From NCBI GenBank assembly GCA_020058085.1, contig JAGVER010000005.1, positions 2,743-66,742 of the forward strand: a DNA stretch of 64,000 bases, given 5' to 3'. Shown here piece by piece: positions 1 through 16,184 of the stretch. Both the position numbers and the translations under genes were made by a program. The DNA is from Candidatus Omnitrophota bacterium. GTDB taxonomy: Bacteria > Omnitrophota > Gorgyraeia > Gygaellales > Profunditerraquicolaceae. The notes below the pieces were generated by a model, which saw nothing but the letters and a program-made list of their open reading frames with translations, did not search any database and was not told the origin of the DNA. Positions within the stretch are counted from its first letter, which is position 1. Every line of letters starts with the position of its first letter.

Positions 1-3000
1 GGCGGAACCTGGCAGGATATAGTTTCGAATTTAGATGTTGTTCCGGGGGCTAATACCTACCCCTGGACAGTTCCTGTTTCTACCAGCACAAATACAGTGG
101 TTAAGGTAAGTGATTCTTCCGCGCTTTCTAGCGTCTTTAAGCAGACCGGCGTATTTACTATTCGCGGTGGTTTTAGCTTTGTGCATCCAGTAAGTACAGA
201 CCGTTGGTTGGCCAATAGTTCTAAACTTATAGAATGGAATACATTGGGTAGTATTTCTTCCGTTTATATACAGTATTCCTTGCAAGGCGGGGCAGGAGGA
301 ATTTGGAATTTTGTTAATGACGGTTCACCTATTTCTAATGCTACAGAGCAGTATAGTTGGACAGTTCCTAACGCAATTTCGTCTCAGGCGTGCATAAAAA
401 TCACTGATATTAATGATCCTCAAGCTAGCAAGATTTCGGATATTTTTAATATCCATGGCGCTATAACTTTGACCCAGCCCAATGGACAGGAAAAATTAAA
501 AGCGGGCCAGTCTGATACCTCAAGCAAAATCAAATGGACAATGACTGGGCCTATTTCTAGCGTTGACTTAGCACTTTCTACTAATGGCCAGGCGGGAACC
601 TATACGACTTTTGCTGTCAATCAATCAGCTGCGCTTTTAGAGTATCCGTGGTCAGTGCCTACTACTACGCTTTCAAATAATTGTTTTATCCGTATCCGCG
701 ATTCAGGAGATAATTTAGTGGAGGATTTTTCGGATTTAGCCTTTAAGATTATGGAGAACTTCAATCTTACTTCACCTAATGGCACAGAGCAGTGGGTGGT
801 GAGTGATCCACACGATATCACTTGGAACTCTGTAGGCCTGGCAAGTTCTGTTAATCTTAAATATTCCATAGATGCGGCTCATACCACTTGGACTCCGATT
901 ATTTCACAGACCGTTAATGATGGAGTTCATCCTTGGACTATTCCACCCACAATTTCGTCTACTTGTCAGGTACGGGTTTCTGATTTTAATGACGACACAG
1001 ACTCCTATGATCTTTCTGACAGTGACTTCAAAATCCAGGGTAGGGTTACTTTAATTTCTCCTGTAGGCGGTGAAAAATGGGGTTGCGCTAGCCAGCAGTG
1101 GATACGCTGGGGTTGGGATGGAAACATTGCCAAGGTAGACATTCATTATTATAACGGTTCAACCTGGGTAGCTATTGATGAAGCTCAAGGGTATATCAAT
1201 ACTGGTGAGTACGAATGGACCATACCTACGATTTCTACCATTGCGGCAAAGGTGCGCGTAAGAGATAATGCTGATCCCATCAATGTTTACGATATTTCGG
1301 CTGTTCCTTTTAAGATAATGGGCAGGGTAGTGGTTCAGGTTCCTAATGGCGCAGAGGTCTGGTATGCAGGTAGTAATGCTGTCATTACTTGGACAAAATA
1401 TGGGCCTGCTTCTTTTGATACTGTCCGGATTGATTATTCTCTTGATGACCCGGCGTTTAATAGCCCACAGTCTATCACTACTTCTACACCCAATGATGGC
1501 AGCTTTGACTGGTTAAATATGCCTCAAGAGGCAGTTTCAGGTAAGGTCAGAATTCGTATTGCCAAACCCGATGATATTGCCGATGTTTCGGATATCTCCG
1601 ACGGCGATTTCCGCGTGCGCGTGCAGTTCACTTTAAATTCGCCTAATGGCGGACAGAAATGGAGCGTGGCAGGAGAACAAACAATTACCTGGGCACAGAT
1701 TGGAAATACACAAGGGGTAAAGTTTATTTATTATAGACAGGGTAATCCCGCGATTAATCAAACATTTACTCTTCCTTCGGTTTATACAACCGGGACTTGG
1801 AACCATACCTGGACAATACCTGATTTTATTCAGAATGATTTAATAATGCGCGTAGAAGACCCACTGGACAACGGAGCTTTTGATATTTCTGACGCTACTT
1901 TTAAGATTATGGCGGGATTTGTGGTAACTCGTCCGGATGCTTCTTCGGCAAATGAGGTAGATTATAAATGGTATATAGAAGACCCTGAAATTATCCGTTG
2001 GACTTACACCGGAACAGTTTCAGATGTTGGTATTTATTACTCTACTGTTGGCGGTATAGATGGCAGCTGGGTAGCTTTAACCTCTGTCCCTGCCAGTAAT
2101 TTACAATGGACCTGGCCATCTGTGCCTAACCAGATTACTACGCAATTAAAAGTTAAAGTGGGTTCAGCTACTGATGCCGATGCTTATGGTCTTTCTTTCG
2201 GAATGTCCAGGATCGGATCCAAATTTAATTTAACCGCACCTTTAGGGGCTGAAGAATTAATTGTGCAAGATCCTTTTACGATTATCTGGGCTAATACCGG
2301 CACAGTAAGCAAGGTAGACCTGCATTATTCTACGGATGATTTTGTTACACCCAGGGAAATAATTACGAATCTAAACAATGGAGCAAACGGTGGTTTTTAT
2401 AACTGGACCGTTCCTGATGTATTTAGTCATCCGGGCGATCCGCAGACCGTAAAAGTGCGGGTAAAAAGATACACAGATGATGATTCCTTTTTCTTTGATA
2501 TTTCTGGCAATTTCAGGATTAAAGGTAGTCTCTGGGTTAAATCTCCGATTTTAGATGATGAATGGGATATTGGCCAGCCCTATCAGATTAAGTGGGGTTG
2601 GAAGGGAACAATGCCGCAGGTAAAGATTGCCTACTCTACAAATGGTCTATCCGGCCCGTTCAATCCAATTCTGGAGAGTTACGGAATCCCTAATGATGGT
2701 AAAGTGGCAAATGGCGCCGGCTCCGGCGGCCCCGGTTCAGAATATACCTATACTTGGACAATTCCGGATGAAGCCACAGCCAATGCCGTAATTAGAATTC
2801 AAGATGAGCGTATCACAGAATCAGATATAGTTGATGATAGTGAAATTTTTCATATCATTGGTTACCTTGCCAATGTAAAAATAAAAGACCCGGCAAATGG
2901 CCAGGAGGTGAATAAATTAGCCGTAGCCAGTAATTATAATATCAATTGGGAGTGGGGTGGGTCAATGCCCGAGGTTAAAATAACCTATTCTATAAACGGG

Positions 3001-6000
3001 GATACCGGGCCGTTTAATCCCATTGTGGAGAATTATGGAGTTCCTAATGATGGTAAAGTGGCAAATGGCGCCGGCTCCGGCGGCCCCGGTTCAGAATATA
3101 CCTATACTTGGACAATTCCCGATACTATCTCGCCGAATTGTAAGGTAAGAGTAGCAGACCCTAGGGATGAAACTGTGTTTAGCGAATCTGCAATATTTAA
3201 AATTCAGGGCGCCTTTACTTTGATTACTCCGCTAGTGGTTGATAATGGGCAGGGTGTTTATGAATGCCGCTGGGTTACTAATGAAGTAAGAGAAGTAAAA
3301 TGGACTACTTTTGGAACAATCCCCAAGGTTGATTTGGTTTATGCTAAAGATTCTGATAGTGATGGTGATATCGATAATGCGGATTTTACGCAAGAAATTG
3401 CCATGGTAAATGGGACTAATATTAATAATCTTAATACATTTAATTGGACAATTCCCAATGAGCGCTTAGCCAATCCGCCTTATTATGTGGAAGCCAAGAT
3501 ACGTATTTATGACCATAATGATCATGATGTTTATGTTCAGGGCCCGGTTACCGCCGGTGGAGTGGATAACTTGAAGATTGATTACTATAAGATTACCTGG
3601 GATATTAGGGATCTGATTACTAACCGGCAGATCGAAGGCTTGACAGTAAACGATACCTCCGGCTGGGTAGCTACCGGGCTTGCTTCGCCTATCACTCGTT
3701 ATGTTCCTGCAGGTTTCTGGACAGCAGAATGGACAAATAAAGATTATGGGCCGATATCTGAATCTTATCTTGCAGGCTGGGATGAAGATGCTCAGATTTG
3801 GCGGGGTGACCGCACAATTTATCGCACTATGGAGACTTTGGTAGTGCATATCTGGCGGGCTTATTCAGAATTTTCTTATGATGTTCCGCCTACGGATAAA
3901 TTAAATATTACCAGCTGGTTGGAAAGAGATGGTTATTTGGTTTCCGGCGTTTTGATTACAGATGTAACTATCTATGATGGTTTTGATAAGATAAAGAGAA
4001 AGACTAACTTAGTAGACGAGGCCGCTAATAAATTCTATTATTATACTGATATCCCTCCCGGCGTAAAATTGTGGATAGGCGACCGCTTGGGGGAACTGCG
4101 CACTATGCAAAATGTAATCAATGATTGCGCGCCGTATAAAACCGGCGAGATGGCTATACCTGCTGACTTTGCCGGTTTCTTTATCCAGTCTTGGTCTCCC
4201 ACTTCCTATACTGCCTCAGGCACAAATCACAGTACTTTGCAATCAGGTAGAGTCTACGCAGTTGCCAGCTATATGGGTTTATCCACCGGCGCTACCTTTA
4301 CTACTCCCGTATCATTTACGGTTACGATACCCATAGCCATGGCTAATGTTGAAGCAGCGGTTACTGGAATGGTTGACACGGTTAACTCTGTTTTGGATAA
4401 GCCTATATCCGTAGTCAGTGCGGAGATACAGGCTCAGTTAGAGGCGCAAACCGGGATTATTGACCAAAAAATGACTGAGCAGACCCAGATAATTCAGGTT
4501 GCCACCAATAATATGCAGACGATCATTCAGGATGCGATGGTTAGTTTTGAGACTACGGTGCAGGATTCAATTACTCTCTTGAAATCAAGCGCGGCGACAG
4601 CAGAAGAGGCAGCCGGGCTTCTGGAGACCACTGCTAAAAAATACTCTTGGAATGCTATGGTCTCTCCTGATCCGGCACTTACCGGCGATACTGTTACGCT
4701 AACTGCCCAGGGTATGCCCGGGTTAGCTCCCGTGCTTAAAGTTTATAGCTGGGATAATAAGACTATTTTAGATAATATAAAATTGACTGAGGCCAGCGAG
4801 GGAGTCTATAATTATGAATTTAAGGTGGATGCCCGTTTTACCGCGGGAAAGGCGTATACTTATGTGGTTACTGAGCAGAGTACTGCCGGCATGGTCTCCG
4901 GCTCCGGAATGGTAGAAAGTATGAGTCTTACTACGATTGCTGGTTTAGCGGCAGCCGCGCCTGGAGCGGAAAGGGCTGCCAAGAAGGCATTAGATGCGAT
5001 TGCGGCAGTTGAGGCAGTATTAATCTCTAAGGAGCCGATGAATATTGCCCTTACCCTAAAGAACCTTAAAGATTCCGTAGACGCGCTTCCAGAGGTAATG
5101 ACAAAAGAAGGCCCTTCCGCTCGTCTGGCTCAAACAGTAAATGAGATATCAAACAGGATAAAGAAATTGGGCGGCGATGAGGGGTATGATTTTACTACTT
5201 TAGTAGGTGAAGCTATAAACGAGGCGCCGGCTATCAAAGAATTACGCAGCAAGGCGGATGCAATCAGGACATCTACCGATGTTTTGACAAATGTTTTTGA
5301 AGCCAAATTTGGCGGCGTAGATAAGCCTGTTGTTGTAACTTCACTGGAACCCGGAAGCGTCAAATTCCGGATTGTAGCGCTTAACCCTTCGAAGACCAAG
5401 ACGCAAAAAACAGAGATAAAATACTATTTGCCTGCTGAAGTAAAACCAAAAGATATTTCAGATACAGCGGGCTTAGATTTGGAATATGATTCCGAAAAGT
5501 CTATTTACTACGTATATAAACCTGATCTAGAACTTTCTCCGGGTGAGATGCGCGTATTTGAGGTAGAAGTAGAAGATATTTGGTTCTTAGAGCAGAATAA
5601 ACTTTTAGAACTAAAGAATCGCACTGATATAGTCCTTGGTAAGCTTGAGACAACGCCTTATTATACAAAAGCTAAAGAGATAGCCGATACTATTTATCCG
5701 CGCTTAGATGAGATAGCTCTTTCTCAAAAAGATGATTCAATCAATCGCGAACAACATATAGGTATCTATCGGCAAAACCTTTTGACCTTAGGTCAGGTTA
5801 AAGAAGATATCGCCCGAATGGAAAAGATTCTTGTTACTGCCGGAGGGCCACCTGCGCCTGAAATGTTAGCCAAGACTAAAATAAAGGCGGATGAGCCTTC
5901 AAAGACAATGACCTGGATAGTTATTTGCACAGTTATTATTTTTACCGGGCTCTTAGCTGGAGTTCTTTTCTTTACTTGGCACCGCCAGGCACGCATCAGT

Positions 6001-6078
6001 AAAGAAGAACTTTTATCTGCTAAAAAGTCTGCCTTTCCAGAATCTGGTTCTAAAGAAGAACCTAAAGAAAATTCATAA
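1..6078 (+). CDS. Giant repeat-rich cell-surface protein, 5'-truncated by the window edge. It has >=12 tandem ~95-118 aa beta-rich (Ig-like) repeats, non-repeat beta and helical C-terminal regions, and a single C-terminal TM anchor.
   Basis: Frame 1 is open from nt 1, and GGTWQDIVSNLDVVPGANTYPWTVPVS already fits the repeat consensus, so the GTG at 97 is not the true start. Repeat consensus is roughly [FL]xLxSPNGGExW...ITW...G....V.I.YS....W..I....NDG.Y.WT[IV]P.....C.[IV]R[IV].D......D.SD..F.I.G. The TM helix MTWIVICTVIIFTGLLAGVLFFTW (nt 5908-5979) is followed by the basic tail HRQARISKEE. Confidence 0.85.
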   Translation, partial: GGTWQDIVSNLDVVPGANTYPWTVPVSTSTNTVVKVSDSSALSSVFKQTGVFTIRGGFSFVHPVSTDRWLANSSKLIEWNTLGSISSVYIQYSLQGGAGGIWNFVNDGSPISNATEQYSWTVPNAISSQACIKITDINDPQASKISDIFNIHGAITLTQPNGQEKLKAGQSDTSSKIKWTMTGPISSVDLALSTNGQAGTYTTFAVNQSAALLEYPWSVPTTTLSNNCFIRIRDSGDNLVEDFSDLAFKIMENFNLTSPNGTEQWVVSDPHDITWNSVGLASSVNLKYSIDAAHTTWTPIISQTVNDGVHPWTIPPTISSTCQVRVSDFNDDTDSYDLSDSDFKIQGRVTLISPVGGEKWGCASQQWIRWGWDGNIAKVDIHYYNGSTWVAIDEAQGYINTGEYEWTIPTISTIAAKVRVRDNADPINVYDISAVPFKIMGRVVVQVPNGAEVWYAGSNAVITWTKYGPASFDTVRIDYSLDDPAFNSPQSITTSTPNDGSFDWLNMPQEAVSGKVRIRIAKPDDIADVSDISDGDFRVRVQFTLNSPNGGQKWSVAGEQTITWAQIGNTQGVKFIYYRQGNPAINQTFTLPSVYTTGTWNHTWTIPDFIQNDLIMRVEDPLDNGAFDISDATFKIMAGFVVTRPDASSANEVDYKWYIEDPEIIRWTYTGTVSDVGIYYSTVGGIDGSWVALTSVPASNLQWTWPSVPNQITTQLKVKVGSATDADAYGLSFGMSRIGSKFNLTAPLGAEELIVQDPFTIIWANTGTVSKVDLHYSTDDFVTPREIITNLNNGANGGFYNWTVPDVFSHPGDPQTVKVRVKRYTDDDSFFFDISGNFRIKGSLWVKSPILDDEWDIGQPYQIKWGWKGTMPQVKIAYSTNGLSGPFNPILESYGIPNDGKVANGAGSGGPGSEYTYTWTIPDEATANAVIRIQDERITESDIVDDSEIFHIIGYLANVKIKDPANGQEVNKLAVASNYNINWEWGGSMPEVKITYSINGDTGPFNPIVENYGVPNDGKVANGAGSGGPGSEYTYTWTIPDTISPNCKVRVADPRDETVFSESAIFKIQGAFTLITPLVVDNGQGVYECRWVTNEVREVKWTTFGTIPKVDLVYAKDSDSDGDIDNADFTQEIAMVNGTNINNLNTFNWTIPNERLANPPYYVEAKIRIYDHNDHDVYVQGPVTAGGVDNLKIDYYKITWDIRDLITNRQIEGLTVNDTSGWVATGLASPITRYVPAGFWTAEWTNKDYGPISESYLAGWDEDAQIWRGDRTIYRTMETLVVHIWRAYSEFSYDVPPTDKLNITSWLERDGYLVSGVLITDVTIYDGFDKIKRKTNLVDEAANKFYYYTDIPPGVKLWIGDRLGELRTMQNVINDCAPYKTGEMAIPADFAGFFIQSWSPTSYTASGTNHSTLQSGRVYAVASYMGLSTGATFTTPVSFTVTIPIAMANVEAAVTGMVDTVNSVLDKPISVVSAEIQAQLEAQTGIIDQKMTEQTQIIQVATNNMQTIIQDAMVSFETTVQDSITLLKSSAATAEEAAGLLETTAKKYSWNAMVSPDPALTGDTVTLTAQGMPGLAPVLKVYSWDNKTILDNIKLTEASEGVYNYEFKVDARFTAGKAYTYVVTEQSTAGMVSGSGMVESMSLTTIAGLAAAAPGAERAAKKALDAIAAVEAVLISKEPMNIALTLKNLKDSVDALPEVMTKEGPSARLAQTVNEISNRIKKLGGDEGYDFTTLVGEAINEAPAIKELRSKADAIRTSTDVLTNVFEAKFGGVDKPVVVTSLEPGSVKFRIVALNPSKTKTQKTEIKYYLPAEVKPKDISDTAGLDLEYDSEKSIYYVYKPDLELSPGEMRVFEVEVEDIWFLEQNKLLELKNRTDIVLGKLETTPYYTKAKEIADTIYPRLDEIALSQKDDSINREQHIGIYRQNLLTLGQVKEDIARMEKILVTAGGPPAPEMLAKTKIKADEPSKTMTWIVICTVIIFTGLLAGVLFFTWHRQARISKEELLSAKKSAFPESGSKEEPKENS
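2689..3119 (+). repeat. Two perfect 77-nt direct repeats (2689-2765 and 3043-3119), 354 nt apart, inside adjacent protein repeats of the giant gene
   Basis: cctaatgatggtaaagtggcaaatggcgccggctccggcggccccggttcagaatatacctatacttggacaattcc occurs identically twice. It encodes PNDGKVANGAGSGGPGSEYTYTWTIP in both repeat units, while the flanking sequence has diverged. Confidence 0.95.
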
Positions 6079-6101: not shown

Positions 6102-6335
6102 ATGTTTCTTGATATTACTGTTTTAAGTCCAAAAGAAATAGTTTTTGAAGGAAAGGCTAAAAGTGTTATTTTACCGGGCGAAAATGGCGTATTCGAAGTG
6201 TTAGTGTTTCATAAATTTATCTTAAGCCGGCTTATTTCCGGAAAAATCACGGTAGATGAACAAAGCTTTCCCATACGCAGGGGGATTGTTAAGGCCCGTC
6301 AGAATAAAGTCACCATAATTATGGAAGAAGGATGA
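6102..6335 (+). CDS. atpC: F-type ATPase epsilon subunit, N-terminal beta-sandwich only (77 aa)
   Basis: VILPGENGVFEVLVFHKFILSRL...NKVTIIMEE matches the epsilon N-domain pattern (PG.eG.fgvL..H.p....L ... VtIla). The C-terminal two-helix hairpin is absent. ATGA overlap with the next gene. Confidence 0.7.
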   Translation: MFLDITVLSPKEIVFEGKAKSVILPGENGVFEVLVFHKFILSRLISGKITVDEQSFPIRRGIVKARQNKVTIIMEEG

Positions 6336-6550
6336 GCAGGAATATAGCACTTATTGTAATCTTTGGGTTCTGTGTATTGGGCCCTTGTGCTGTATTTGCC
6401 GCGGGTAGTTTCGCCAGTATTAACGCGCTGGGAAGGAATCCTTCAAGCGCGCCTAAAATATTTACCGCGATGATTATCGCGCTTGTTTTTGCTCAAGCCT
6501 TAGCAATTATAGCAATGTTAATAGTTTTTCAATTGTTCTCGCAATCATAG
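6332..6550 (+). CDS. ATPase c-subunit-like two-helix membrane hairpin lacking any acidic residue
   Basis: 72 aa with two hydrophobic helices joined by the polar loop GRNPSS (cf. ARQPE). It aligns nearly colinearly (one-residue offset) with 72-aa bacterial c subunits. ALVFAQALAIIAML corresponds to GVALVEALPIIGVV, with Gln55 (CAA, nt 6494-6496) at the ion-binding Glu position. The whole protein has no D or E, and the helix-1 GxGxGxG motif is degenerate. Confidence 0.6.
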   Translation: MSRNIALIVIFGFCVLGPCAVFAAGSFASINALGRNPSSAPKIFTAMIIALVFAQALAIIAMLIVFQLFSQS

Positions 6551-6601
6551 GCAGATAGAGTATAATTATCGCAAAGAGAGCTTAATTAGGAAAGGTAAAA
6601 T

Positions 6602-7318
6602 ATGTTTATCGTCCCTTTAATAATATTCCAGATATTTATTTTTGTTATTTTGGTTTTTGCTTTACGTAAAATAATGATGAAAAATGTGGTTTCGGCTACA
6701 AGGCACATTAATGAAATGGGCCAGGATTATGATAAAAAAGAAGAGGAGATAAGCAGGCGGTTTGAAGAACTAAAGCAGGAATCAGAGGAAACGGTTAGAA
6801 AAGCGCAACAAGAAGCGCAAGAGTTAAAGGCAGGGATTATTAAAGAAGCTGAAAGCGAAAGAGATAAAATGTTAAAACAGAGCAGGTCTCAAAGCGATGA
6901 GATAATTAAGCAGGCAGATAAGTCAAGGCAGCTTTTGCTCTCTGAAATAGACGAAAGAATAGCCAAAGAAGCGGTTAACAAAGCCTGTGAATTAATCCAG
7001 GAGACTTTGCCGGAACAGCTTAAGCAGAATGTGCATAGGTATTGGGTAAAAGAACTTATTAACGCTGGATTTAGCGAATTAGAGCGTTTACGCATTCCCA
7101 AAGATATCGACGAGGTAAAGATTATTTCAGCCTTTAATCTGGATGAAGAAGAGCGCAAAAATCTGTTTGATAAATTAAAAAACACGCTGGGTTCCGGGGT
7201 TAAATTTAAAGAAGAGATTGAACCAAAGGTAGTCGCAGGGATTATCATTACTATAGGCAGTCTTGTCCTAGACGGAAGTTTAAGGAATAAGATTAAGGAG
7301 AATATTAGGAATGCCTGA
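6602..7318 (+). CDS. ATPase peripheral-stalk b subunit fused to a delta/OSCP-like C-terminal domain
   Basis: N-terminal TM helix (MFIVPLIIFQIFIFVILVFAL), then a long charged coiled coil typical of subunit b. The C-terminus KVVAGIIITIGSLVLDGSLRNKIKENI matches the delta-subunit C-terminal signature (v.gG..i.iGd.viDgSvr..L..L). No separate atpH gene is present. Confidence 0.65.
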   Translation: MFIVPLIIFQIFIFVILVFALRKIMMKNVVSATRHINEMGQDYDKKEEEISRRFEELKQESEETVRKAQQEAQELKAGIIKEAESERDKMLKQSRSQSDEIIKQADKSRQLLLSEIDERIAKEAVNKACELIQETLPEQLKQNVHRYWVKELINAGFSELERLRIPKDIDEVKIISAFNLDEEERKNLFDKLKNTLGSGVKFKEEIEPKVVAGIIITIGSLVLDGSLRNKIKENIRNA

Positions 7319-8804
7319 TTCGGTATTAAAGGAAACAAGTATTAGAAGTGCGACCCGATTTGAAGTTAGAGAGATTGGACAAGTTCAGTCGGTGCGTAAA
7401 TTTATTCTTATTGTCAAGGGCCTGCCATCTTGTATTAATGGCCAGATTGTGGAGCTCGCAAATGGCACATTAGGATTGGTGATGGGTTTTACCGAAGATA
7501 AAGTCCAGATTTTAGTTTTAGGCGATGCTAGTTCTATCCGCGCGGGAGATGAGGTTTATAATAAAGGAAGGTCTTTGAATTTAGCTGTAGCAGACGCATT
7601 TTTAGGGCGGATAATCAACAGCCTTTGCCAGCCACAGGATGGCTTAGGCCCTATAGTGGTAAGCGAATTATATCCTGTATTTAAAGTGGCGCCGGGAGTT
7701 ATGGACCGCGCGCCTGTAAAAGATACCCTTGAAACAGGAACACTGATTCTGGACGCGATTATTCCTATAGCCAAGGGGCAGCGTCAGCTTCTTATAGGAG
7801 ATAGGCTTACCGGTAAGACAACGGTCGCGATTGACGCTATATTAAATCAAAAAGGCAAGGATGTTATTTGTATTTATTGCTGTATCGGGAAACCGTACTC
7901 CAGCTTCTTAAAGATTTTGGATATTCTAAATGAAAAAGATGCCTTACAATATACAATAATAGTCAGCGGTGTAGCATCTGTATCTACGGGAGAGCAATAT
8001 CTGGCCCCTTATACCGCCTGTATGCTGGGCGAATATTTTATGAATAAAGGCAAAGATGTTTTAGTTGTATTTGATGATTTGACTAAGCACGCGTGGATAT
8101 ATAGGCAGATATCTCTTCTTCTTGAGCGCGCGCCCGGAAGAGAGGCATACCCCGGAGATATATTTTATATTCATTCCCAATTAATGGAGCGCGCAGGTTT
8201 TCTTAAGCAGGAACTAGGTAGCGGATCAATGACATTTTTCCCCATTGTAGAAATACTTCAGGGCGATGTTACCGGTTATGTTTCCACAAACTTAATCTCT
8301 ATGACTGACGGGCAGCTGTATTTCTCTACCACACTTTTTAATAAAGGGTTTAAGCCGGCAATTGATTTTGGCCTTTCAGTTTCCCGTATCGGAAATAAGG
8401 CGCAATGGCCGGCGATGAAAGATTTAAGCAAATCTTTACGCCTGGATTACCTCCAGTATAAAGAACTTTTACAAATGACGCAATTACGGACTAGCGGGTT
8501 ATCCAAAGAAGCAGAGTTACGCTTAAAAAGAGGAGAAGCAATAAATCAACTTATTATTCAGGATAAAAATATCCCTGTTTCCTTGGAGGAGCAGATAATT
8601 TATCTGGTTGCTTTAAGCCGCGGCGTGCTTGATAATTTGCCGGTAAGTAAAATTAAACAATTTAAACAAGAGATCCTCAAATTCTTAGATAAGCGTTATC
8701 CGGGATTTTCTTTAAGCCTTCGTAACAGTAAGGCATTGACAGATGAAACCAAGATACAGATAGAGGATGTTTTGAGGGAGTATTTTAAGGAAGCGATAAA
8801 GTAA
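7311..8804 (+). CDS. atpA: F-type ATPase alpha subunit
   Basis: 497 aa. P-loop GDRLTGKTTVAID, LLLERAPGREAYPGDIFYIHSQLMERA, GLSVSRIG. Confidence 0.9.
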   Translation: MPDSVLKETSIRSATRFEVREIGQVQSVRKFILIVKGLPSCINGQIVELANGTLGLVMGFTEDKVQILVLGDASSIRAGDEVYNKGRSLNLAVADAFLGRIINSLCQPQDGLGPIVVSELYPVFKVAPGVMDRAPVKDTLETGTLILDAIIPIAKGQRQLLIGDRLTGKTTVAIDAILNQKGKDVICIYCCIGKPYSSFLKILDILNEKDALQYTIIVSGVASVSTGEQYLAPYTACMLGEYFMNKGKDVLVVFDDLTKHAWIYRQISLLLERAPGREAYPGDIFYIHSQLMERAGFLKQELGSGSMTFFPIVEILQGDVTGYVSTNLISMTDGQLYFSTTLFNKGFKPAIDFGLSVSRIGNKAQWPAMKDLSKSLRLDYLQYKELLQMTQLRTSGLSKEAELRLKRGEAINQLIIQDKNIPVSLEEQIIYLVALSRGVLDNLPVSKIKQFKQEILKFLDKRYPGFSLSLRNSKALTDETKIQIEDVLREYFKEAIK

Positions 8805-8807
8805 CCA

Positions 8808-9653
8808 ATGAAGACACTTTCAAACATAAAAAAAGATTTAGAGTTTAACCGCGGACTTTCTTCTTTAATCGAAGTGTTAAAAACTATGGCCGTGGCGCAA
8901 TACAGGATATTAGAGGAGAGGTTAAAGATTTTCGAGAAATTAATTGTATCCATAGAAGATTTTTTTGAGCATGTCGATATCACCAAGATTAATCATCCGT
9001 ATTTAATCCCCCAAAATAGATTTCAAGGAGTAGTGGCAATAACTTCTGACAGTGGGCTTTTGGGCGGCCTTAACATGCAGGTCGTCTCCGGCGCGCTTTT
9101 GGAATTAGAAAAGACCCCCGGCAAGCTTATTATTATCGGCGAACGCGGTAAACTTTATGTACGGGAGACTAACATTCCTTTTGTCTCTTTTGGCGGAGTT
9201 AAGGATGATGAGCGCTATGCCCAGGCCATGCAATTAAGGGATTATCTATTAGCTAAGGTTCTTGACGGCTCTTTCGGGTCTTTAAAGATAATTTATCCGC
9301 ATCCTGTATCTTTTACTGTGCAGCACGTGGAAACAGTTTCATTCCTGCCTTATAAGCCGAATTTAGTTAAGGAGAATACCGCTCTCCAAGCTTATCCAGA
9401 AGTTATTTTAGAATCAAGGGTAGGTGATATTATGCAATATTTGGTGTATACCTGGATGGGCCAGAAAATTTATGAAATCTTCGGCTTAAGCCGCTTGGCA
9501 GAATTTGCTGCCCGTTTTGTGCATCTTGAAGGAAGCCATCAGAGATTAAGAGAAATGGATACTAAAATTAAATTGGAGTATTTTCATGTCAGGCACGAAC
9601 TTATTGACCGTAATATGCGTGAGCTTTTCGCGGCAAGATTAGCTTTTTCTTAA
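8808..9653 (+). CDS. atpG: F-type ATPase gamma subunit
   Basis: 281 aa lying between alpha and beta. The N-terminal helix IKKDLEFNRGLSSLIEVLKTMAVAQY and C-terminal helix RHELIDRNMRELFAARLA fit the gamma coiled coil. Confidence 0.75.
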   Translation: MKTLSNIKKDLEFNRGLSSLIEVLKTMAVAQYRILEERLKIFEKLIVSIEDFFEHVDITKINHPYLIPQNRFQGVVAITSDSGLLGGLNMQVVSGALLELEKTPGKLIIIGERGKLYVRETNIPFVSFGGVKDDERYAQAMQLRDYLLAKVLDGSFGSLKIIYPHPVSFTVQHVETVSFLPYKPNLVKENTALQAYPEVILESRVGDIMQYLVYTWMGQKIYEIFGLSRLAEFAARFVHLEGSHQRLREMDTKIKLEYFHVRHELIDRNMRELFAARLAFS

Positions 9654-9656
9654 TAT

Positions 9657-11057
9657 ATGAAAGAAAATAAAGATATTATAATAGGGCATGTATCCGCGGT
9701 TCAGGGGCCTGTAGTGGATGTTAAATTCCAGAATTCAGTTGATGTGCCTAATATATTCAGCGTTATTCAAACCCAAACCATAGATAAAGAAAAGGTTGTT
9801 TTAGAGGTAGCAGAACATCTTCCGGGAAACATTGCCCGTTGCATTGCTATTAACTCGACGATAAATCTTCAGCGTAATCAGGAAGCCTACTCAAGTGGCG
9901 CTACTATTCAAATTCCTACAGGCGATATGCTTTATGGGCGCATAATAAATATGTTGGGGGAGCCCATTGATCAGAAAGGCGAAATTAAAAGTTCAGAGAG
10001 ATCTAATATAAGAAAAGCAGATATGGGAAGCCAGGTTAGATTAAAAAAAGATTTCCATAGGAGCTTTGATGTAATGGAGACCGGGATTAAAGTTATTGAT
10101 CTTCTTTTTCCCGTGGTTAAGGGAGGCAAAACCGGGATTTTAGGTGGCGCGGCTTTGGGAAAAAGTATTTTAACCCTGGAAATTATTCAGCATATTGTAA
10201 AAAGGCATCAGGGTAGCTGCGTATTTGTGGGTGTCGGTGAGCGTATCCGCGAGGGAAACGAGCTTTATTATGAATTATTAAAACACGAAGTTTTAGCTAA
10301 AACAATGATGGTCTTTGGCCAGATGAATGAGCCTCCGGGAGCCCGTTTCGGCGTGGCAATGACAGGTATTACCTTGGCTGAATCTGTTCAAAGGAAGAAT
10401 CAGGATGTCCTGCTTTTTGTGGATAATATTTTCAGGTTTGTTCAGGCAGGAGCAGAGATATCTACCCTTTTAGGCCGCGTTCCATCGGAGACAGGTTATC
10501 AGCCTACCTTGATTTCAGAGGCGAGTGAATTTCATGAGAGGATACGTTCTTCACAGGAAGCAGGCGGCGCGATTACTTCTTTTGAAGCAGTATATGTTCC
10601 TGCCGATGATTTAACTGATCCGGCAGTAGTAGCTATTTTTAGTTTCTTGGATTCAATTCTGGTACTTTCACGCGAACGCATACAATTGGGTTTGTATCCT
10701 GCGGTAGATCCCTTATTATCGTCCTGCGCTAATTTGGATATTGATATCGTCGGCAGAAAACATTTTGATATTTCTCAAGAGGTAATCAGGATTTTTCAGA
10801 GATACGAAGAATTAAGGCGCATTGTTTTAGTTGTGGGAATCGATGAATTATCGTCCACCGACCGCATTCTTTATGAACGCGCCAGAAAATTACAGAATTT
10901 TCTTACCCAGCCATTTTTTGTCGCGGAGACTTACACCGGTAAAAAGGGAGAGTATGTCACTTTGCCCCAGACTCTCGAAGGTTGTGAAAGGATTATCGCG
11001 GGAAGAGTTGATTCTATCCCCGAGGAACAATTTTATTTGATTGGTGTTTTGCCCTAA
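9657..11057 (+). CDS. atpD: F-type ATPase beta subunit (catalytic)
   Basis: 466 aa. P-loop GGAALGKS, VGVGERIREGNELY, DVLLFVDNIFRFVQAG, GRVPSETGYQPTL, YVPADDLTDPA. The DELSEED region reads DELSSTD. Confidence 0.92.
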   Translation: MKENKDIIIGHVSAVQGPVVDVKFQNSVDVPNIFSVIQTQTIDKEKVVLEVAEHLPGNIARCIAINSTINLQRNQEAYSSGATIQIPTGDMLYGRIINMLGEPIDQKGEIKSSERSNIRKADMGSQVRLKKDFHRSFDVMETGIKVIDLLFPVVKGGKTGILGGAALGKSILTLEIIQHIVKRHQGSCVFVGVGERIREGNELYYELLKHEVLAKTMMVFGQMNEPPGARFGVAMTGITLAESVQRKNQDVLLFVDNIFRFVQAGAEISTLLGRVPSETGYQPTLISEASEFHERIRSSQEAGGAITSFEAVYVPADDLTDPAVVAIFSFLDSILVLSRERIQLGLYPAVDPLLSSCANLDIDIVGRKHFDISQEVIRIFQRYEELRRIVLVVGIDELSSTDRILYERARKLQNFLTQPFFVAETYTGKKGEYVTLPQTLEGCERIIAGRVDSIPEEQFYLIGVLP

Positions 11058-11059
11058 AG

Positions 11060-11527
11060 ATGATTAGAAGTCCCAAAAGATTAGGTGATATCTTAATAGA
11101 GAAAGGCTTGATAACCCAAGAAGTGTTAGATGATGCTTTACGCGAGCAGCGGGAAACAAAGGAATTCTTGGGCGCAATATTATTAAGAAAAAAACGGATC
11201 AAAGAAGCGGATTTGTTAACGGCGCTATCTGAACAATTTCATATTCCACTTTTTAGTTTGAAAGATAAATATATTGATTGGAATTTAGTCAAGGGCTTCA
11301 GCGCTTCGCTAATTTTAGATTACAGATGTTTCCCTGTAGCCAAAGATGATTGGTCAATAACCATGGCCATAACTAACCCCTTGGATATCCGGGTACTAAA
11401 GAGGGTCGAAGATGAAGCAAAGGGATTAAGATTGAAATTAGTTTTGGTTTCCGAGGGAGATATCAACGATTCTATTAAGAGGTACAATAGCTATCTAAGG
11501 GGTAATATTTCTAAACTATTCGAGTAA
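11060..11527 (+). CDS. Stand-alone GspE/MshE N-terminal (MshEN / T2SSE_N) domain protein, predicted c-di-GMP receptor
   Basis: 155 aa. Residues 7-30, RLGDILIEKGLITQEVLDDALREQ, match the 24-residue MshEN motif RLGxx[LVI][LVI]xxG[LVI][LVI]xxxxLxxxLxxQ exactly. After a 5-residue spacer comes a second copy, FLGAILLRKKRIKEADLLTALSEQ, with G->K at one position. Confidence 0.8.
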   Translation: MIRSPKRLGDILIEKGLITQEVLDDALREQRETKEFLGAILLRKKRIKEADLLTALSEQFHIPLFSLKDKYIDWNLVKGFSASLILDYRCFPVAKDDWSITMAITNPLDIRVLKRVEDEAKGLRLKLVLVSEGDINDSIKRYNSYLRGNISKLFE

Positions 11528-11530
11528 AAT

Positions 11531-13684
11531 ATGCCTAAGAAACTAGATATAATTTTATCAGAAGCATTAATTGAAAAAAGGTTAATCGCGCAGAATGATA
11601 TAGGCAATTTTCTTAAAGAGGCTGAGTCATTGAATGAAAGCCTGCAGCAAATTTTAATTAAACGGGGCATTTTTCCTGAAAAAGATATTTTGAATATTTT
11701 GGGGGAAAAATTAAAGTTATCCAGCGTTAACTTAAGAGAGATCACAATTGATAAAGCTGTTTTAGCAAAAGTCCCGGTCAAAATTGCCTTGTATTATAGA
11801 TTCGTCCCGGTTCAAATAAAAGACAGGGTTTTAACTATTGCGGTTTCTTGCCCGTTAGAGATAAAAATCCAGGATGAGGTAAGGGCGCAGCTGGGTTATG
11901 ATATTGAGACGGTTCTCTCTTCTTCGGGCGATCTCCTGGAATCCCTGAAGAAATATTATGGCTTGGCGGCCGATACCTTAGAAAAGATTTCTTCTAACGT
12001 CCAGCAGGCCGAAGCATCCCACGAAACGCATTTTGAGACAGTAGAGGATATTGAAAAGCTGGCAGGAGACGCTTCGGTAATAAAATTGGTCAACCAGATA
12101 ATTCTGGAGGGATTCAGGAAACGCGCTACCGATATTCACATTGAGCCTTATAGAGAAGGGGTCTCTTTACGTTATCGCATTGACGGGTTGCTTTACGACG
12201 CAAATTTTCCTCCCGAAATAAAGAATTTCTTAAGCGCTATAATTTCCCGTATTAAGATAATGTCCAATTTAAATATTGTTGAGCGTAGGCTACCCCAGGA
12301 TGGCAGGGCGATAGTAAAGGTTGGAGAGCAGATGCTGGATCTGCGTATTTCCACAATACCTACGCCATTCGGGGAAAGTGTGGTAGTAAGGATCCTGCCT
12401 ACGCAGATGCTTTTTAGCCTGGAGAAGCTTGGGCTTGGGAAAAAAGATTTGCAGGTTTTTGAGGGATTAATTAAGAAACCCCATGGTATAATTTTTGTTA
12501 CCGGTCCGACAGGGAGCGGAAAGACTACTACCTTGTATGCCTGTTTAAGCAGGATTAATACCAAAGAACGTAAAATTATTACCATTGAGGATCCTATTGA
12601 GTATGAAATGTCCGGGATTACCCAGATACAGGTTAGTCCGGATATCGGCCTGGATTTTGCCCGGGGATTACGCAGTATTTTAAGGCATGACCCGGATGTA
12701 ATAATGGTAGGAGAGGTCAGGGATTTAGAAACCGCAGAAATAGCTATTCGCGTGGCCTTGACCGGCCACCTTGTATTTTCCACTCTCCATACTAATGATG
12801 CTGCCAGCGGTATCACCAGATTAATAGACATAGGAGTCGAACCGTTTCTTTTGGCTTCCAGCGTTGAGGCATTCATTGCCCAGCGTTTAATAAGATTAAT
12901 TTGTCCTGATTGTAAAATTGAGGATAACGCCGCTCCCATAGAATTAAAAGAGCTGATTGCCCGGGACATTTCCTTGAAGTCCTTAAATGAGGTTAAGATA
13001 TTTAAAGGTAAGGGTTGCCCGAGTTGCAACTTTACCGGATTTTTCGGCAGGACCGCAATTTACGAAATACTCCCGGTGGACGAAGCAATGAAGGATTTAA
13101 TTTTGAAGAAAGCCACTGCTACTCAGATAAAAAGGCTTGCTCTTTCAAAAGGGATGCGTACATTGCGTCAGGATGGTTGGCATAAAGTAATTCTCGGAGC
13201 GACCACCCCTGAAGAAGTGATGAAAGTTACTTCTGCCGAAGAGTATACGGAAGAAGATAAAAATGCCCGGTTCCTTCCCGCCGGTTCTTTAAAGCCAGTA
13301 ACTTATCAAGTCCCAAATCCCGATGAGAAAAGGGCGTATCTTCGCTTAAACAGCAAAGTGAATTTACGTTATAAAGTATTTGATACGGCAGAGAAGCTGC
13401 TCAAAAAAGGATTTAAGCCGGAAGAGTTTAGCGTTACAAATAATCTTTCCGCGGGGGGCCTGGTCTTTTTTTCAGACGATATGCTGGCTGTTGGTTTGAT
13501 TTTAGAATTAACTATAGAACTGCCTGATAGCGAGGAGCCGATAGGATGCCTGGCTAAAGTGGTAAGGCTGGAAGAGAGGCAGGATCATAAAGGTTATAAT
13601 GTTGCAGTTTGTTTTCTGGATATAACCGGCGCAGGAAGATCAAGGCTAGGAAGGTACATAGAATTAGAAACGGAGATGATATAA
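11531..13684 (+). CDS. GspE/PilB-family secretion ATPase with N-terminal T2SSE_N domain and C-terminal PilZ domain
   Basis: 717 aa. Walker A GPTGSGKTTT, Asp/His boxes, tetracysteine CPDC...CPSC. The C-terminal ~120 aa carry the PilZ motifs KRAYLR (RxxxR) and NLSAGG ([DN]xSxxG). Confidence 0.9.
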   Translation: MPKKLDIILSEALIEKRLIAQNDIGNFLKEAESLNESLQQILIKRGIFPEKDILNILGEKLKLSSVNLREITIDKAVLAKVPVKIALYYRFVPVQIKDRVLTIAVSCPLEIKIQDEVRAQLGYDIETVLSSSGDLLESLKKYYGLAADTLEKISSNVQQAEASHETHFETVEDIEKLAGDASVIKLVNQIILEGFRKRATDIHIEPYREGVSLRYRIDGLLYDANFPPEIKNFLSAIISRIKIMSNLNIVERRLPQDGRAIVKVGEQMLDLRISTIPTPFGESVVVRILPTQMLFSLEKLGLGKKDLQVFEGLIKKPHGIIFVTGPTGSGKTTTLYACLSRINTKERKIITIEDPIEYEMSGITQIQVSPDIGLDFARGLRSILRHDPDVIMVGEVRDLETAEIAIRVALTGHLVFSTLHTNDAASGITRLIDIGVEPFLLASSVEAFIAQRLIRLICPDCKIEDNAAPIELKELIARDISLKSLNEVKIFKGKGCPSCNFTGFFGRTAIYEILPVDEAMKDLILKKATATQIKRLALSKGMRTLRQDGWHKVILGATTPEEVMKVTSAEEYTEEDKNARFLPAGSLKPVTYQVPNPDEKRAYLRLNSKVNLRYKVFDTAEKLLKKGFKPEEFSVTNNLSAGGLVFFSDDMLAVGLILELTIELPDSEEPIGCLAKVVRLEERQDHKGYNVAVCFLDITGAGRSRLGRYIELETEMI

Positions 13685-13688
13685 CAAT

Positions 13689-14903
13689 ATGGGCACGTAT
13701 AAATATCGCGCAAAAAAAGGTTTTAATGAAGTTGTGGAAGGGTTAATTGACGCGCAGTCTGAAAAAGAAGCGATTGAAAAGTTAAGCTCTATGGAGTTGT
13801 TGCCCTTACACTTGGAAGAAGCCCGTGCCAGTAAATCTAAATCCATTTCTTTAGTCAAATTTCGCGGTAAAATTAAATCACGCGAAATTACTATTTTCAG
13901 CCGTCAATTAGCCAGCCTTTTGAAATCCGGCGTAGCTATTTTAAACGCCCTTAATATTATCAATGATCAGTCTGATGATTCTAACCTGAAAAATATACTT
14001 TATAATATTAGCAATGCAATAAAAGATGGCGCTACATTTTCTTCGGTGCTTGCGCAATATCCCCGGGTTTTTTCTCCTCTTTATGTTGCCATGATCCGCA
14101 CGGGAGAAGGCAGCGGGTCGCTTCCGGATGTGCTTTTAAGGATATCTGACTATCGCATCAAGCAAGAAGAGATGCTTTCGCGTTTTCGTATGGCCCTTGT
14201 TTACCCGATACTCATGGCAGTTGTGGGCCTGGGCACTATAATTTTTATGCTCACATTTGTAATGCCAAGATTAATGAAGATATTTTTGAGCATGGGGCAG
14301 GATTTACCTTTACCTACCCGTATTTTAATTGCGATAAGTGGTTTTCTTTGCCATAGCTGGTTTTGGGTAGTCTTAATTTTGGCAATCATAATTTTAATTC
14401 TTCGTAGAGAACTAAGGACAAAGTCCGGAAGGCTATCTTTGAGCCTGTTTAAATTACACCTTCCTTTGTTCGGAAAGCTTATCCTTAAAGCTGAACTTGC
14501 CCGTTTTTGCCGTACCCTGGAATTACTCATAAAAGATGGCATCACTATATTAAAGGCGATTGAAATAGCTGTTCCGGTAATTGACAACGAAATAATAAAG
14601 AACCATTTATTGCAGAGTTATCAACAACTACAGCGCGGCGGTTCTTTTGGTAGGAGTTTAAGAAATGTAAAATTATTTCCTGTTTTCATGAGTAACCTTA
14701 TAGGAGTAGGCGAAGAATCAGGCAGGCTTGATGAGGCCTTGGCGGAAGTGGCAGGTAATTACGAGCGGGATACTGACGAAGCAATTAAGGTAATGAACAG
14801 TCTCTTAGAGCCGGTGATGATTTTAGTAATGGGCTTAATCGTAGGTTTTATCGTGGTTGCAATGATTCTGCCCATATTTGAAATCAACATGATGGCTAAA
14901 TGA
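13689..14903 (+). CDS. GspF/PilC-family inner-membrane platform protein
   Basis: 404 aa with a duplicated T2SSF domain architecture, three TM segments, and a position directly after the GspE-like ATPase. Confidence 0.9.
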   Translation: MGTYKYRAKKGFNEVVEGLIDAQSEKEAIEKLSSMELLPLHLEEARASKSKSISLVKFRGKIKSREITIFSRQLASLLKSGVAILNALNIINDQSDDSNLKNILYNISNAIKDGATFSSVLAQYPRVFSPLYVAMIRTGEGSGSLPDVLLRISDYRIKQEEMLSRFRMALVYPILMAVVGLGTIIFMLTFVMPRLMKIFLSMGQDLPLPTRILIAISGFLCHSWFWVVLILAIIILILRRELRTKSGRLSLSLFKLHLPLFGKLILKAELARFCRTLELLIKDGITILKAIEIAVPVIDNEIIKNHLLQSYQQLQRGGSFGRSLRNVKLFPVFMSNLIGVGEESGRLDEALAEVAGNYERDTDEAIKVMNSLLEPVMILVMGLIVGFIVVAMILPIFEINMMAK

Positions 14904-15757: not shown

Positions 15758-15770
15758 CCAGGAGGGATTA

Positions 15771-16184
15771 ATGACTGGAATTAAAAAAACAGATGGTTTT
15801 ACTTTAATTGAGCTTATGCTTGTGGTTGTAATTATCGGTGCATTAGTGGCTATGGTTATGCCCAGGCTTACCGGAAGAGGCGAGCAGGCGCGCGTTGGCG
15901 CGGCCATGGCAGATATCCGCGCTAACATTGCCACTGCTTTAAAACTTTACGAATTAGATAATGGTAGTTTCCCCAGGACAGAAGAAGGATTGAATGCTTT
16001 ATTGAATAAACTTGCTTCTGCGTCAAACTGGAACGGCCCATATCTGGAAAAAAGCCCGGTAGACCCCTGGGGTAGGGAATATAAATATAAATGTCCGGGC
16101 GAACACAGGCCGGCGGATTACGATTTGTATTCATTAGGTAAAGACGGAGTGGAAAGCCAGGATGATGCCAAAAATTGGGAATAA
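15771..16184 (+). CDS. gspG: Type II secretion major pseudopilin GspG
   Basis: Prepilin leader MTGIKKTDG|FTLIELMLVVVIIG. C-terminus NGPYLEK.PVDPWGREYKYKCPGEHRPADYDLYSLGKDG is the classic GspG signature. Confidence 0.9.
   Translation: MTGIKKTDGFTLIELMLVVVIIGALVAMVMPRLTGRGEQARVGAAMADIRANIATALKLYELDNGSFPRTEEGLNALLNKLASASNWNGPYLEKSPVDPWGREYKYKCPGEHRPADYDLYSLGKDGVESQDDAKNWE

Follow-up and report, generated by a model that had tools for sequence, protein, structure and literature searches.

To our knowledge, the grip of the δ N-terminal domain (NTD) on the α N-terminus is regarded as the universal hold of an F-type stator on F1. This contact is also the OSCP interface at which several inhibitors act. 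The Omnitrophota, which host the locus described here, are ultra-small and possibly predatory bacteria. The stator protein AtpF of the N-ATPases, a known Na+/H+-exporting F-type variant, is said to have been dealt with by Sumi in 1997 and Saum in 2009 as well. According to Dibrova et al. (2010; PMC2881411), atpH is missing from the N-ATPase operons, as the earlier note on this DNA had correctly, if tentatively, suggested, and the unusually long AtpF has a C-terminus that aligns with δ. Seymour et al. (2023; PMC10066038) describe an Omnitrophota cluster as a non-respiratory F-type homologue located beside pilus genes; they give phylogenies for α and β only and label them type 2/3, Mycoplasma-like. 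The locus studied here is that locus, with F-type α and β genes less than 10 kb from GspE/PilB-type pilus genes. In contrast to the published label, its α and β pass the cutoffs of the genuine atpA and atpD models and perform poorly on the Mycoplasma models (the type 2/3 models scored 400.6 vs a cutoff of 600, 304 vs 520, 427 vs 850, and 403 vs 570 on the cluster). The searchable main text of Seymour et al. (2023; PMC10066038) gives no account of the stator, of the polymorphic c site and truncated ε, or of the absence of subunit a, and in the literature we found no description of this Omnitrophota stator.

Within the 64,000-nucleotide stretch analyzed here (the window), one forward-strand ORF at 6602..7318 encodes a 238-aa b-δ(CTD) fusion, recognized from the ORF list, from Pfam OSCP and ATP-synt_B matches, and from a conserved ~240-aa family. 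The parts of the operon described below all lie on this (+) strand. A Shine-Dalgarno-like stretch read from the sequence, AGGAAAGG (6588..6595), precedes the ATG by six bases, and the initial methionine is kept in at least 90% of the members in the family alignment. The stop codon shares bases with the start of the α gene (ATGCCTGA, 7311-7318), which suggests coupled expression. An antisense ORF of 149 aa (6889-7338) was set aside, being a shadow of the sense gene, which is strongly conserved. The fusion is the sole predicted peripheral-stalk gene of its operon. The earlier note had proposed a single ORF combining a b-type anchor and coiled coil with a δ C-terminal segment, and this architecture was borne out by Pfam, pairwise and family alignments, AlphaFold2 (AF2), and Foldseek.

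The b part begins with an N-terminal transmembrane helix (residues ~3-25, 6608..6676; hydrophobic MFIVPLIIFQIFIFVILVFAL, helical in the AF2 model), directly followed by a juxtamembrane motif, N28-V29-x-x-A32-T33-x-H35, whose columns are invariant. A long b-type helix of ~110 residues follows (residues 26-135, 6677..7006), which is supported by AF2, hydrophobic periodicity, and alignments to b chains. Its hydrophobic periodicity peaks at 3.67 residues (hendecad, 11/3) with a power of 86, compared to a 99th percentile of 63 in shuffled controls. The dimerization helix of E. coli b has the same hendecad (11/3) periodicity and forms a right-handed coiled coil, and the fusion probably forms a homodimer whose shaft is a coiled coil of this hand. 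An L136-P137 kink and a helix spanning residues 138-162 complete this part (7007..7087; AF2, conservation, and b alignments). H145 is invariant in this helix, and W148 and L152 are found in at least 90% of the family. By alignment, the kink and helix correspond to the C-terminal, δ-binding end of a free b subunit. ATP-synt_B (PF00430) matches residues 7-132 over positions 2-131 of 132 (E 1.7e-5), with a score of 25.4 bits that falls a little short of the gathering score of 28, and the b model TIGR01144 gave 17.4 bits vs a cutoff of 65.5. Residues 11-164 of Bacillus PS3 b (168 aa) align to residues 7-156 (E 7e-7), and E. coli b reaches position 152 of the family profile with its final residue (156/156). 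All solved b chains, including those of PS3, E. coli, and P. aeruginosa, align within family positions 6-155 and up to their own C-termini. These alignments indicate that the b part of the fusion is a complete b subunit.

The remaining residues, 163-238 (7088..7315), form the δ/OSCP C-terminal domain according to Pfam OSCP, Foldseek, and BLASTP. This alpha/beta domain carries the δ/OSCP motif G-x-x-[VI]-D-G-S, here as the nearly invariant GSLVLDGSL of residues 219-227 (7256-7282). Matching the OSCP and ATP-synt_B profiles had been named as a check of the earlier proposal: besides the ATP-synt_B match described above, OSCP (PF00213) covers residues 162-233 with profile positions 95-167 of 172 (E 6.2e-14), and its 52.9 bits exceed the gathering score of 22.3. 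The δ model TIGR01145 scored 47.7 bits vs a cutoff of 57.5. Only the C-terminal part of δ is matched: residues 99-169 of solved E. coli δ align to residues 163-232 of the fusion, the E. coli δ alignment to the family profile begins at its residue 93 (family position 157), and no solved δ/OSCP chain aligns before its own residue 74, all of them falling within family positions 137-237. Likewise, BLASTP matched only residues 90-171 of a canonical 182-aa δ. Foldseek placed the last 68 residues on δ C-terminal domains (6oqr_W, 9o19_W, 7nkd_d) with an rmsd of 1.4-1.5 Å. The AF2 model (pLDDT 87.8) consists of a helix at 3-135, the L136-P137 kink, the helix at 138-162, and an alpha/beta domain at 171-237; its monomer pTM is just 0.49, so the orientation of the shaft relative to the head is uncertain.

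A six-helix δ N-terminal bundle was found neither in the OSCP profile match nor in the δ alignments or the AF2 model. Since E. coli b ends at position 152 and δ only starts at its residue 93, there is no room for it, as had been suspected beforehand, and the alignments and the model show that the bundle (~90-105 residues) has been deleted from the fusion. Several δ models align back to ~98-136, which suggested a degenerate δ NTD at residues ~98-160. This candidate was rejected, because the AF2 helix is unbroken to residue 135, b chains align up to 152-156, and the extended δ alignments cover charged helical sequence only.

The presumed partner of this domain is altered as well. The α gene (497 aa, 7311..8804; NF009884 561.5 bits vs a cutoff of 554) starts with a short, unconserved tail of residues 1-16 (7311..7358) in an alignment of ~50 family α N-termini, where the top-residue frequency is 0.21 vs 0.78 in the following 70 residues. 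The δ-binding amphipathic helix EISExIK, present in α of E. coli and of a canonical locus (L053), is absent from these ~50 N-termini. By this comparison, the α N-terminal helix, the ligand of the missing δ domain, has been lost in parallel. The other subunits comprise γ (281 aa, 8808..9653; Pfam ATP-synt, E 3.8e-30), β (466 aa, 9657..11057; TIGR01039 559.7 bits vs a cutoff of 462.85), and an ε of 77 aa that is reduced to its beta-sandwich domain (6102..6335; ATP-synt_DE_N; TIGR01216 positions 2-79 of 130), in line with family ε lengths of mostly 74-85 aa. Subunit c (72 aa, 6332..6550; Pfam ATP-synt_C) has a glutamine, Q55 (caa, 6494-6496), at the position of the ion-binding carboxylate, aligned with D61 of E. 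coli c. Across related loci, this site reads E 25 times, Q 19 times, and A and W once each, which makes the c carboxylate dispensable. Glutamate is retained by about half of these related c subunits, and ion coupling is possible in those species.

The design is not restricted to this contig. A word search with the fusion yielded 238 homologues, which carry the names Omnitrophota or Omnitrophica, and at least 147 clusters (50% identity, E<=1e-30) have the b-δ architecture, nearly all at full length (236-250 aa). It is retained in a variant with 24% identity and also in ten divergent members. The gene order giant protein-ε-c-b/δ-α-γ-β-GspE/F was seen at about 48 of the 54 related loci. The upstream giant protein is anchored C-terminally, and GspE/GspF/pseudopilin genes lie downstream; in the window, β runs to 11057 and GspE begins at 11531. 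None of the ~48 of 54 syntenic loci has genes for b', δ, or a, and no other b, δ, or a homologue was found within the 64-kb window. In agreement with the earlier note, a separate atpH gene was thus seen neither in the window nor in the conserved cluster of ~50 related loci. The absence of subunit a is based on a transmembrane scan of all ORFs in the window and on the conserved cluster having no unassigned gene-sized gap; a phmmer search with E. coli subunit a did not match in the window or any locus, but this test is insensitive, being negative for the canonical L053 as well. A subunit a or a free δ may be encoded beyond these 64 kb of the genome. Public pipelines name the fusion inconsistently, as subunit δ or as subunit b. 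With names used interchangeably in this way, the complex passes for an incomplete ATP synthase in KO-based surveys.

Our preferred reading, which we consider likely, is that the b-δ fusion is the sole stator of an Omnitrophota-specific F-type-derived ATPase and probably serves a motor that does not translocate ions. The lack of subunit a and the dispensable c carboxylate point to such an ATP-driven motor. The b-δ contact, normally non-covalent, would have been turned into a peptide bond. The long helices of two copies would wind into a right-handed hendecad coiled coil, and the head, consisting of helix 138-162 and the δ C-terminal domain, would bind the α3β3 crown directly, in a manner akin to V/A subunit E or N-ATPase AtpF rather than by the δ-NTD/α-tail grip. 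With such a stalk, the catalytic hexamer would stay anchored to the membrane as γ-ε and the c-ring are turned by ATP hydrolysis, and the motor may be functionally tied to its neighbors, the giant surface protein and the T2SS/T4P-like genes. Besides a homodimer, one, two, or three stalks are conceivable. A homodimer would bring two δ C-terminal domains, an arrangement without structural precedent that speaks against a stalk of this kind.

The similarity to N-ATPases is extensive. Like AtpF, the fusion is one protein of ~240-250 aa with a b-type anchor, a helix, and a δ C-terminal part, it occurs without atpH, it is read as the only peripheral-stalk subunit, and it has been compared with V/A subunit E. 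Given this shared architecture and the same atpH absence reported in the literature, and with TIGR03321 (246 positions) as the top NCBIfam model, aligned from end to end with residues 8-231 on positions 9-238 (E 1e-15), the protein might be a plain N-ATPase AtpF. We regard this as very improbable. The TIGR03321 score is 58.2 bits vs a cutoff of 224.7, and ten divergent family members reach only 38-78 bits (maximum 77.7). Moreover, the canonical atpA, atpD, and γ models give α, β, and γ higher scores than their N-ATPase counterparts do, and the latter scores stay far below the cutoffs (508 vs a cutoff of 750, 483 vs 752, and 23 vs 282, respectively). The operon, ε-c-b/δ-α-γ-β, also differs from atpDCQRBEFAG and lacks genes for AtpQ, AtpR, and a, while its c subunit has neither the Na+-binding set nor a carboxylate (Q55). 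The fusion is thus set apart from AtpF by profiles and operon, and the model scores indicate that b/δ, α, and β would fall outside the N-ATPase clade. A real N-ATPase AtpF sequence was sought by tblastn against 72,556 plasmids, which matched only canonical atpH from misfiled chromosomes, one of which provided the E. coli atp operon comparator; the PDB copy searched held no structure of a short b-δ(CTD) stator or of an N-ATPase stator. Since the AtpF design was already described in 2010, the compact stator is unusual, as the earlier note had stated, yet it has a precedent. Inconsistent δ/b naming by public pipelines, and nothing else, would fit an artificial fusion created in one contig by a frameshift, a misassembly, or a truncated δ merged with b. 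The chance of this is close to nil: the same ~238-aa single ORF is present in 54 genome loci and at least 147 clusters from independent assemblies, the junction (L136-P137, H145, W148) is among its best conserved parts, and the conservation of the fusion refutes such an origin.

Two other explanations accept the fusion as real, and we judge both to be unlikely, to about the same degree. The missing δ N-terminal function could be supplied in trans by a free δ or δ-NTD-like protein encoded elsewhere, for instance in a second canonical atp operon; the visible genome is limited to 64 kb, and respiratory F-type or V/A-type ATPases occur in some Omnitrophota as well. However, the α tail, to which a δ NTD would have to bind, is short and variable throughout the family and is not a helical-amphipathic segment, none of the ~50 conserved clusters contains a δ-NTD-like gene, and N-ATPases function without this domain (PMC2881411). 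Alternatively, the fusion could be a FliH- or E-like tether in a non-rotary system, docking an F1-like ATPase on the T2SS/T4P-like machine or on the giant membrane protein, with c as a passive anchor. The invariant synteny with the giant protein upstream and GspE/GspF/pseudopilin downstream would suit this role, as would the missing subunit a, the E or Q at the c site, and the similarity of the whole-chain fold to subunit E, given the published argument that FliH, E, and b+δ are homologous. But the rotor subunits γ, ε, and c are all kept and conserved, which favors rotation, α and β score above the genuine atpA and atpD equivalog cutoffs, and contact with a T2SS component would be conjectural. 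A more speculative extension, which we find possible but doubtful, combines an E/FliH-like stalk with a rotary F-type ATPase that has given up ion translocation or never had it, and that serves the giant protein and the T2SS/T4P-like apparatus. It includes the missing subunit a, an optional c carboxylate, the lack of inhibitory ε helices, and the lack of a δ-NTD/α-tail grip, with ATP-driven torque or anchoring being delivered to the co-conserved apparatus. If true, F-type machines would include a third functional class in addition to ATP synthases/ion pumps and the Mycoplasma gliding motor, and the proposed translocase-like ancestor with an unsplit peripheral stalk would have a living analogue.

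On the preferred reading of a sole stator, the features that appear to be new are the short b-δ design in a complex other than an N-ATPase and, by the family alignments, the degeneration of the α N-terminal tail together with the missing δ domain. The stator belongs to a phylum-wide complex that apparently has no coupling to ion transport and is linked to a secretion/pilus locus. This large natural family lacks both sides of the δ-NTD/α interface but keeps all catalytic and rotor subunits, and it therefore offers a clean system for the question of how a stator might hold F1 with only the δ C-terminal domain. The same question of F1 attachment applies to the N-ATPases. Stator attachment is also a direct route to the role of the machine in ultra-small, possibly predatory bacteria.

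Compared to other known systems, the fusion resembles the mycobacterial b-δ proteins (NF009961; 7jg5_d, 9vkp_d, 8j0s_d; 445-448 aa) in having a b-type N-terminus fused to δ. Residues 2-141 align to mycobacterial residues 4-142 and residues 163-231 to 367-436, and ~220 residues of 7jg5_d remain unmatched in between; NF009961 itself gave 39.6 bits vs a cutoff of 328. The earlier remark that the mycobacterial fusions are longer is correct (445 aa vs 238 aa): they have a long linker and the full δ, N-terminal bundle included, which amounts to ~200 extra residues that the Omnitrophota fusion does not have. Furthermore, mycobacterial b-δ pairs with a separate b' in a proton-coupled ATP synthase having subunit a, whereas no b' gene exists here. 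With V/A subunit E (6wm4_H, 9cf8_J), the protein shares an overall shape in which one very long helix leads into a small alpha/beta head. In Foldseek, the whole chain aligned to V-ATPase subunit E over 218-224 columns (TM 0.42-0.45, identity 12-16%), and the Pfam search with the fusion gave no subunit E profile match at E<=1. Unlike E, the fusion has a transmembrane helix, and E needs a G partner, for which no G-like gene is present here. In contrast to the Mycoplasma type 2/3 F1-like clusters, b/δ and c homologues are encoded. The canonical b2-δ stalk of E. coli and Bacillus PS3 has in common with the fusion a complete b with a hendecad shaft and a δ C-terminal domain of the same fold (rmsd ~1.4 Å, 32% identity). 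It differs in that b and δ are covalently joined in the fusion, and that both the δ NTD and the α N-terminal helix are missing here, so the head must attach to F1 differently from the canonical stalk.

The b/delta fusion is encoded by an ORF at 6602-7318 (+; 238 aa), one of six closely packed ATPase genes on the + strand of the window. They are arranged in the order epsilon (6102-6335, 77 aa), c (6332-6550, 72 aa), b/delta, alpha (7311-8804), gamma (8808-9653), and beta (9657-11057), all in the + orientation. The ATG start codon of b/delta has AGGAAAGG six bases upstream, and its stop overlaps the start of alpha (ATGCCTGA), which suggests that both genes are translationally coupled. A word-indexed search retrieved 238 homologues of the protein. 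The 120 listed were all 233-254 aa long, mostly derived from Omnitrophota, and were named either "subunit delta" or "subunit b" by their sources. An exhaustive profile search gave 147 clusters (50% identity) at E<=1e-30 and 519 at E<=1e-10, and among the clusters listed all but fragments aligned end-to-end. The gene is real and conserved.

The earlier note described this protein as a b-type anchor and helix joined to the C-terminal segment of delta/OSCP, and suggested an HMM comparison with the OSCP profile. In this comparison, Pfam OSCP matched residues 162-233 (E 6.2e-14) with just positions 95-167 of its 172, while Pfam ATP-synt_B matched residues 7-132 over the whole profile (E 1.7e-5; 25.4 bits vs a gathering score of 28). 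Based on these two matches, the observation is real and far beyond chance. This two-part match was kept in ten of the most divergent family members, with the curated cutoffs never approached. In a search of solved chains, residues 11-164 of the 168-aa b subunit of Bacillus PS3 aligned to residues 7-156, and residues 99-169 of E. coli delta to residues 163-232. We also ran a family profile of 120 members against E. coli b and delta and the whole PDB. E. coli b aligned through its last residue (156, family position 152), and the alignment of E. coli delta began at its residue 93 (family position 157). All b chains of the PDB fell inside positions 6-155, and every delta/OSCP chain was matched by its C-terminal domain only. 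Likewise, only residues 90-171 of the canonical 182-aa delta of an ordinary atp operon (L053) were covered by BLASTP.

An AlphaFold2 model based on an alignment of 69 sequences (mean pLDDT 87.8, pTM 0.49) consists of a single unbroken helix (residues 3-135), a kink at the conserved L136-P137, a helix from 138 to 162, and a strand-helix-strand-strand-strand-helix domain (171-237). Foldseek superimposed the last 68 residues on the delta C-terminal domains of E. coli (6oqr_W), P. aeruginosa (9o19_W), and M. smegmatis (7nkd_d) with an rmsd of 1.4-1.5 Å and 24-32% identity; the whole chain matched V-ATPase subunit E over 218-224 columns (TM 0.42-0.45). The 238 residues thus comprise a complete b subunit of ~160 residues followed by the delta C-terminal domain of ~75 residues. 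The absence of the N-terminal helical bundle of delta, also suspected previously, is borne out by four independent lines: the solved-chain alignments, the family profile, BLASTP against canonical delta, and the AlphaFold2 model. With some delta models, the aligned region started as early as about residue 100, where a hidden delta bundle could be sought; we attribute this extension to charged helical sequence and rejected this candidate.

The binding partner of the delta N-terminal domain in canonical enzymes is an amphipathic N-terminal helix of alpha, which in E. coli corresponds to residues ~1-22. This helix was seen in the alpha subunits of E. coli (STEISELIKQRIAQF) and of the ordinary atp operon (PEEISEYIKKQIDNF). 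In the alpha subunits of the family, the region preceding the conserved F-E-V-R-E-V-G is variable in length, hydrophilic, and unrelated among species: the mean frequency of the top residue was 0.21 for residues 1-16 of the window alpha vs 0.78 for the next 70. Since the alpha tail is unconserved and the delta N-terminal domain absent, both sides of the interface are lost together. Of the arguments against a delta N-terminal domain provided in trans, this joint loss is the strongest.

We subsequently analyzed the genomic neighborhood in one genome per species, resulting in 54 loci including the ordinary atp operon, with its separate b and delta genes, as a control. About 48 of the 54 share the order giant protein (2,000 to >3,100 aa), epsilon, c, b/delta, alpha, gamma, beta, small MshEN-domain protein, GspE/PilB, GspF/PilC, Peptidase_MA_2 protein, and pseudopilins. 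No gene for subunit a, b', or delta was found in any of these ~48 clusters, and no second b or delta homologue in the 64-kb window. The claim that a separate atpH is missing therefore holds for the window and for the conserved cluster of ~50 related loci. A divergent variant with another gene order is present in L049, L050, and L054 (giant-alpha-epsilon-c-c'-b/delta-gamma-beta-GspE with two c-like genes, L049 1874-12743); its b/delta protein shows 24% identity and an unchanged architecture.

The gene immediately preceding epsilon in the window is a 1993-aa ORF (97-6078) that has a C-terminal transmembrane helix but no Pfam match, and nearly every related locus has a homologue of 2,000 to >3,100 aa at this position. 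The downstream region (11060-19601) encodes an MshEN-only protein, a GspE with MshEN and a C-terminal PilZ domain, GspF, a Peptidase_MA_2 protein, T2SS G/J/K-like pseudopilins, and a PilM-PilN fusion. This cluster looks closer to T2SS than to the literature label "T4aP", and the PilZ-bearing GspE together with the MshEN protein suggests control by c-di-GMP. The locus is the Omnitrophota ATPase/pilus locus of Seymour et al. 2023 (PMC10066038), who regarded its ATPase as a non-respiratory F-type homologue and described it from alpha and beta trees alone; the main text of that paper does not contain the word "stator". West-Roberts et al. 2023 drew attention to T2SS-like loci beside giant genes, but not to the ATPase.

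The b/delta gene is the only stalk gene of the cluster. In the E. coli enzyme, delta binds the b C-terminus with its C-terminal domain and alpha with its N-terminal domain. In the fusion, the b-delta contact would have become covalent and the grip on the alpha tail been dropped, so that the head (helix 138-162 plus C-terminal domain) would have to attach to the alpha3beta3 crown through a different surface, as subunit E heads do on V/A-ATPases and as is assumed for AtpF on N-ATPases. The family-averaged hydrophobicity of helix 28-135 peaked at a period of 3.67 residues (power 86 vs 63 for the 99th percentile of shuffles). This period is the hendecad signature of the right-handed coiled coils of b dimers and E-G stalks, and the long helix may form such a coiled coil. 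Because the cluster contains no gene for b' or G, a homodimer is the simplest reading. Near-invariant positions include the junction (L136-P137, H145, W148, L152), the delta motif GSLVLDGSL, and a juxtamembrane motif directly after the transmembrane helix, N28-V29-x-x-A32-T33-x-H35 (6683-6706). To our knowledge, canonical b subunits have nothing comparable to the latter, which may mark a contact replacing the missing subunit a.

The complex had already been regarded as non-canonical, in agreement with further features. Residue Q55 of c (codon 6494-6496) aligns with the essential D61 of E. coli c. At this site, 46 related c subunits carry E (25), Q (19), A (1), or W (1); the ion-binding carboxylate thus seems not to be required, whereas a polar residue of that size is kept. 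One related locus contains two tandem c genes (L032 2861-3326), the extra copy having Trp at this position. Epsilon consists of the beta-sandwich domain only and lacks the C-terminal inhibitory helical hairpin; family epsilons are mostly 74-85 aa long. No subunit a gene was found in the window (1-64000) or in the conserved cluster of ~50 related loci (L001-L052), nor any ORF with its transmembrane pattern in the 64-kb window. The P-loops of alpha (GDRLTGKT) and beta (GGAALGKS) are legible, and both proteins pass the NCBIfam equivalog cutoffs (atpA, 561.5 vs 554; atpD, 559.7 vs 462.85). Taken together, these features suggest an ATP-hydrolysing rotary machine uncoupled from ion translocation, and the fixed neighborhood makes the giant surface protein and the T2SS/T4P-like system candidates for the target of its torque or anchoring. 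The stator would be of considerably greater significance should the complex as a whole turn out to be an F-type motor that does not pump ions and serves a secretion/adhesion apparatus.

The b-delta observation is thus confirmed, and its interpretation as a stator of b plus delta C-terminal domain is supported. This architecture is already known from N-ATPase AtpF. As the earlier note tentatively suggested, N-ATPase operons lack atpH; their atpF is unusually long, AtpF can be aligned with AtpH in the C-terminal region, and AtpF, like subunit E, corresponds to a b-delta fusion (Dibrova et al. 2010, PMC2881411; the last point restated in PMC5706428). The N-ATPase b model (TIGR03321) is also the best end-to-end NCBIfam match of our protein. 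Despite the same design, the protein falls outside the N-ATPases on all remaining defining features: its score, the operon order, AtpQ/AtpR/a, the ligands of the c subunit, and the alpha, beta, and gamma types. The mycobacterial b-delta protein is indeed longer (445 vs 238 aa) and, unlike the window protein, retains the N-terminal domain of delta and requires b', which excludes membership there. Subunit E was rejected based on the missing profile match, the transmembrane helix of the b/delta protein, and the missing G. Membership in the Mycoplasma F1-like clusters failed as well; alpha and beta scored far under the NCBIfam Mycoplasma type 2/3 models and, as they pass atpA and atpD, the published "type 2/3" label for the Omnitrophota ATPase looks doubtful on these scores. 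No solved structure of a short b-delta(CTD) stator was present in the PDB copy searched. The b/delta protein is best classified as a separate family without a curated model, belonging to the pilus-associated F-type ATPase of Omnitrophota.
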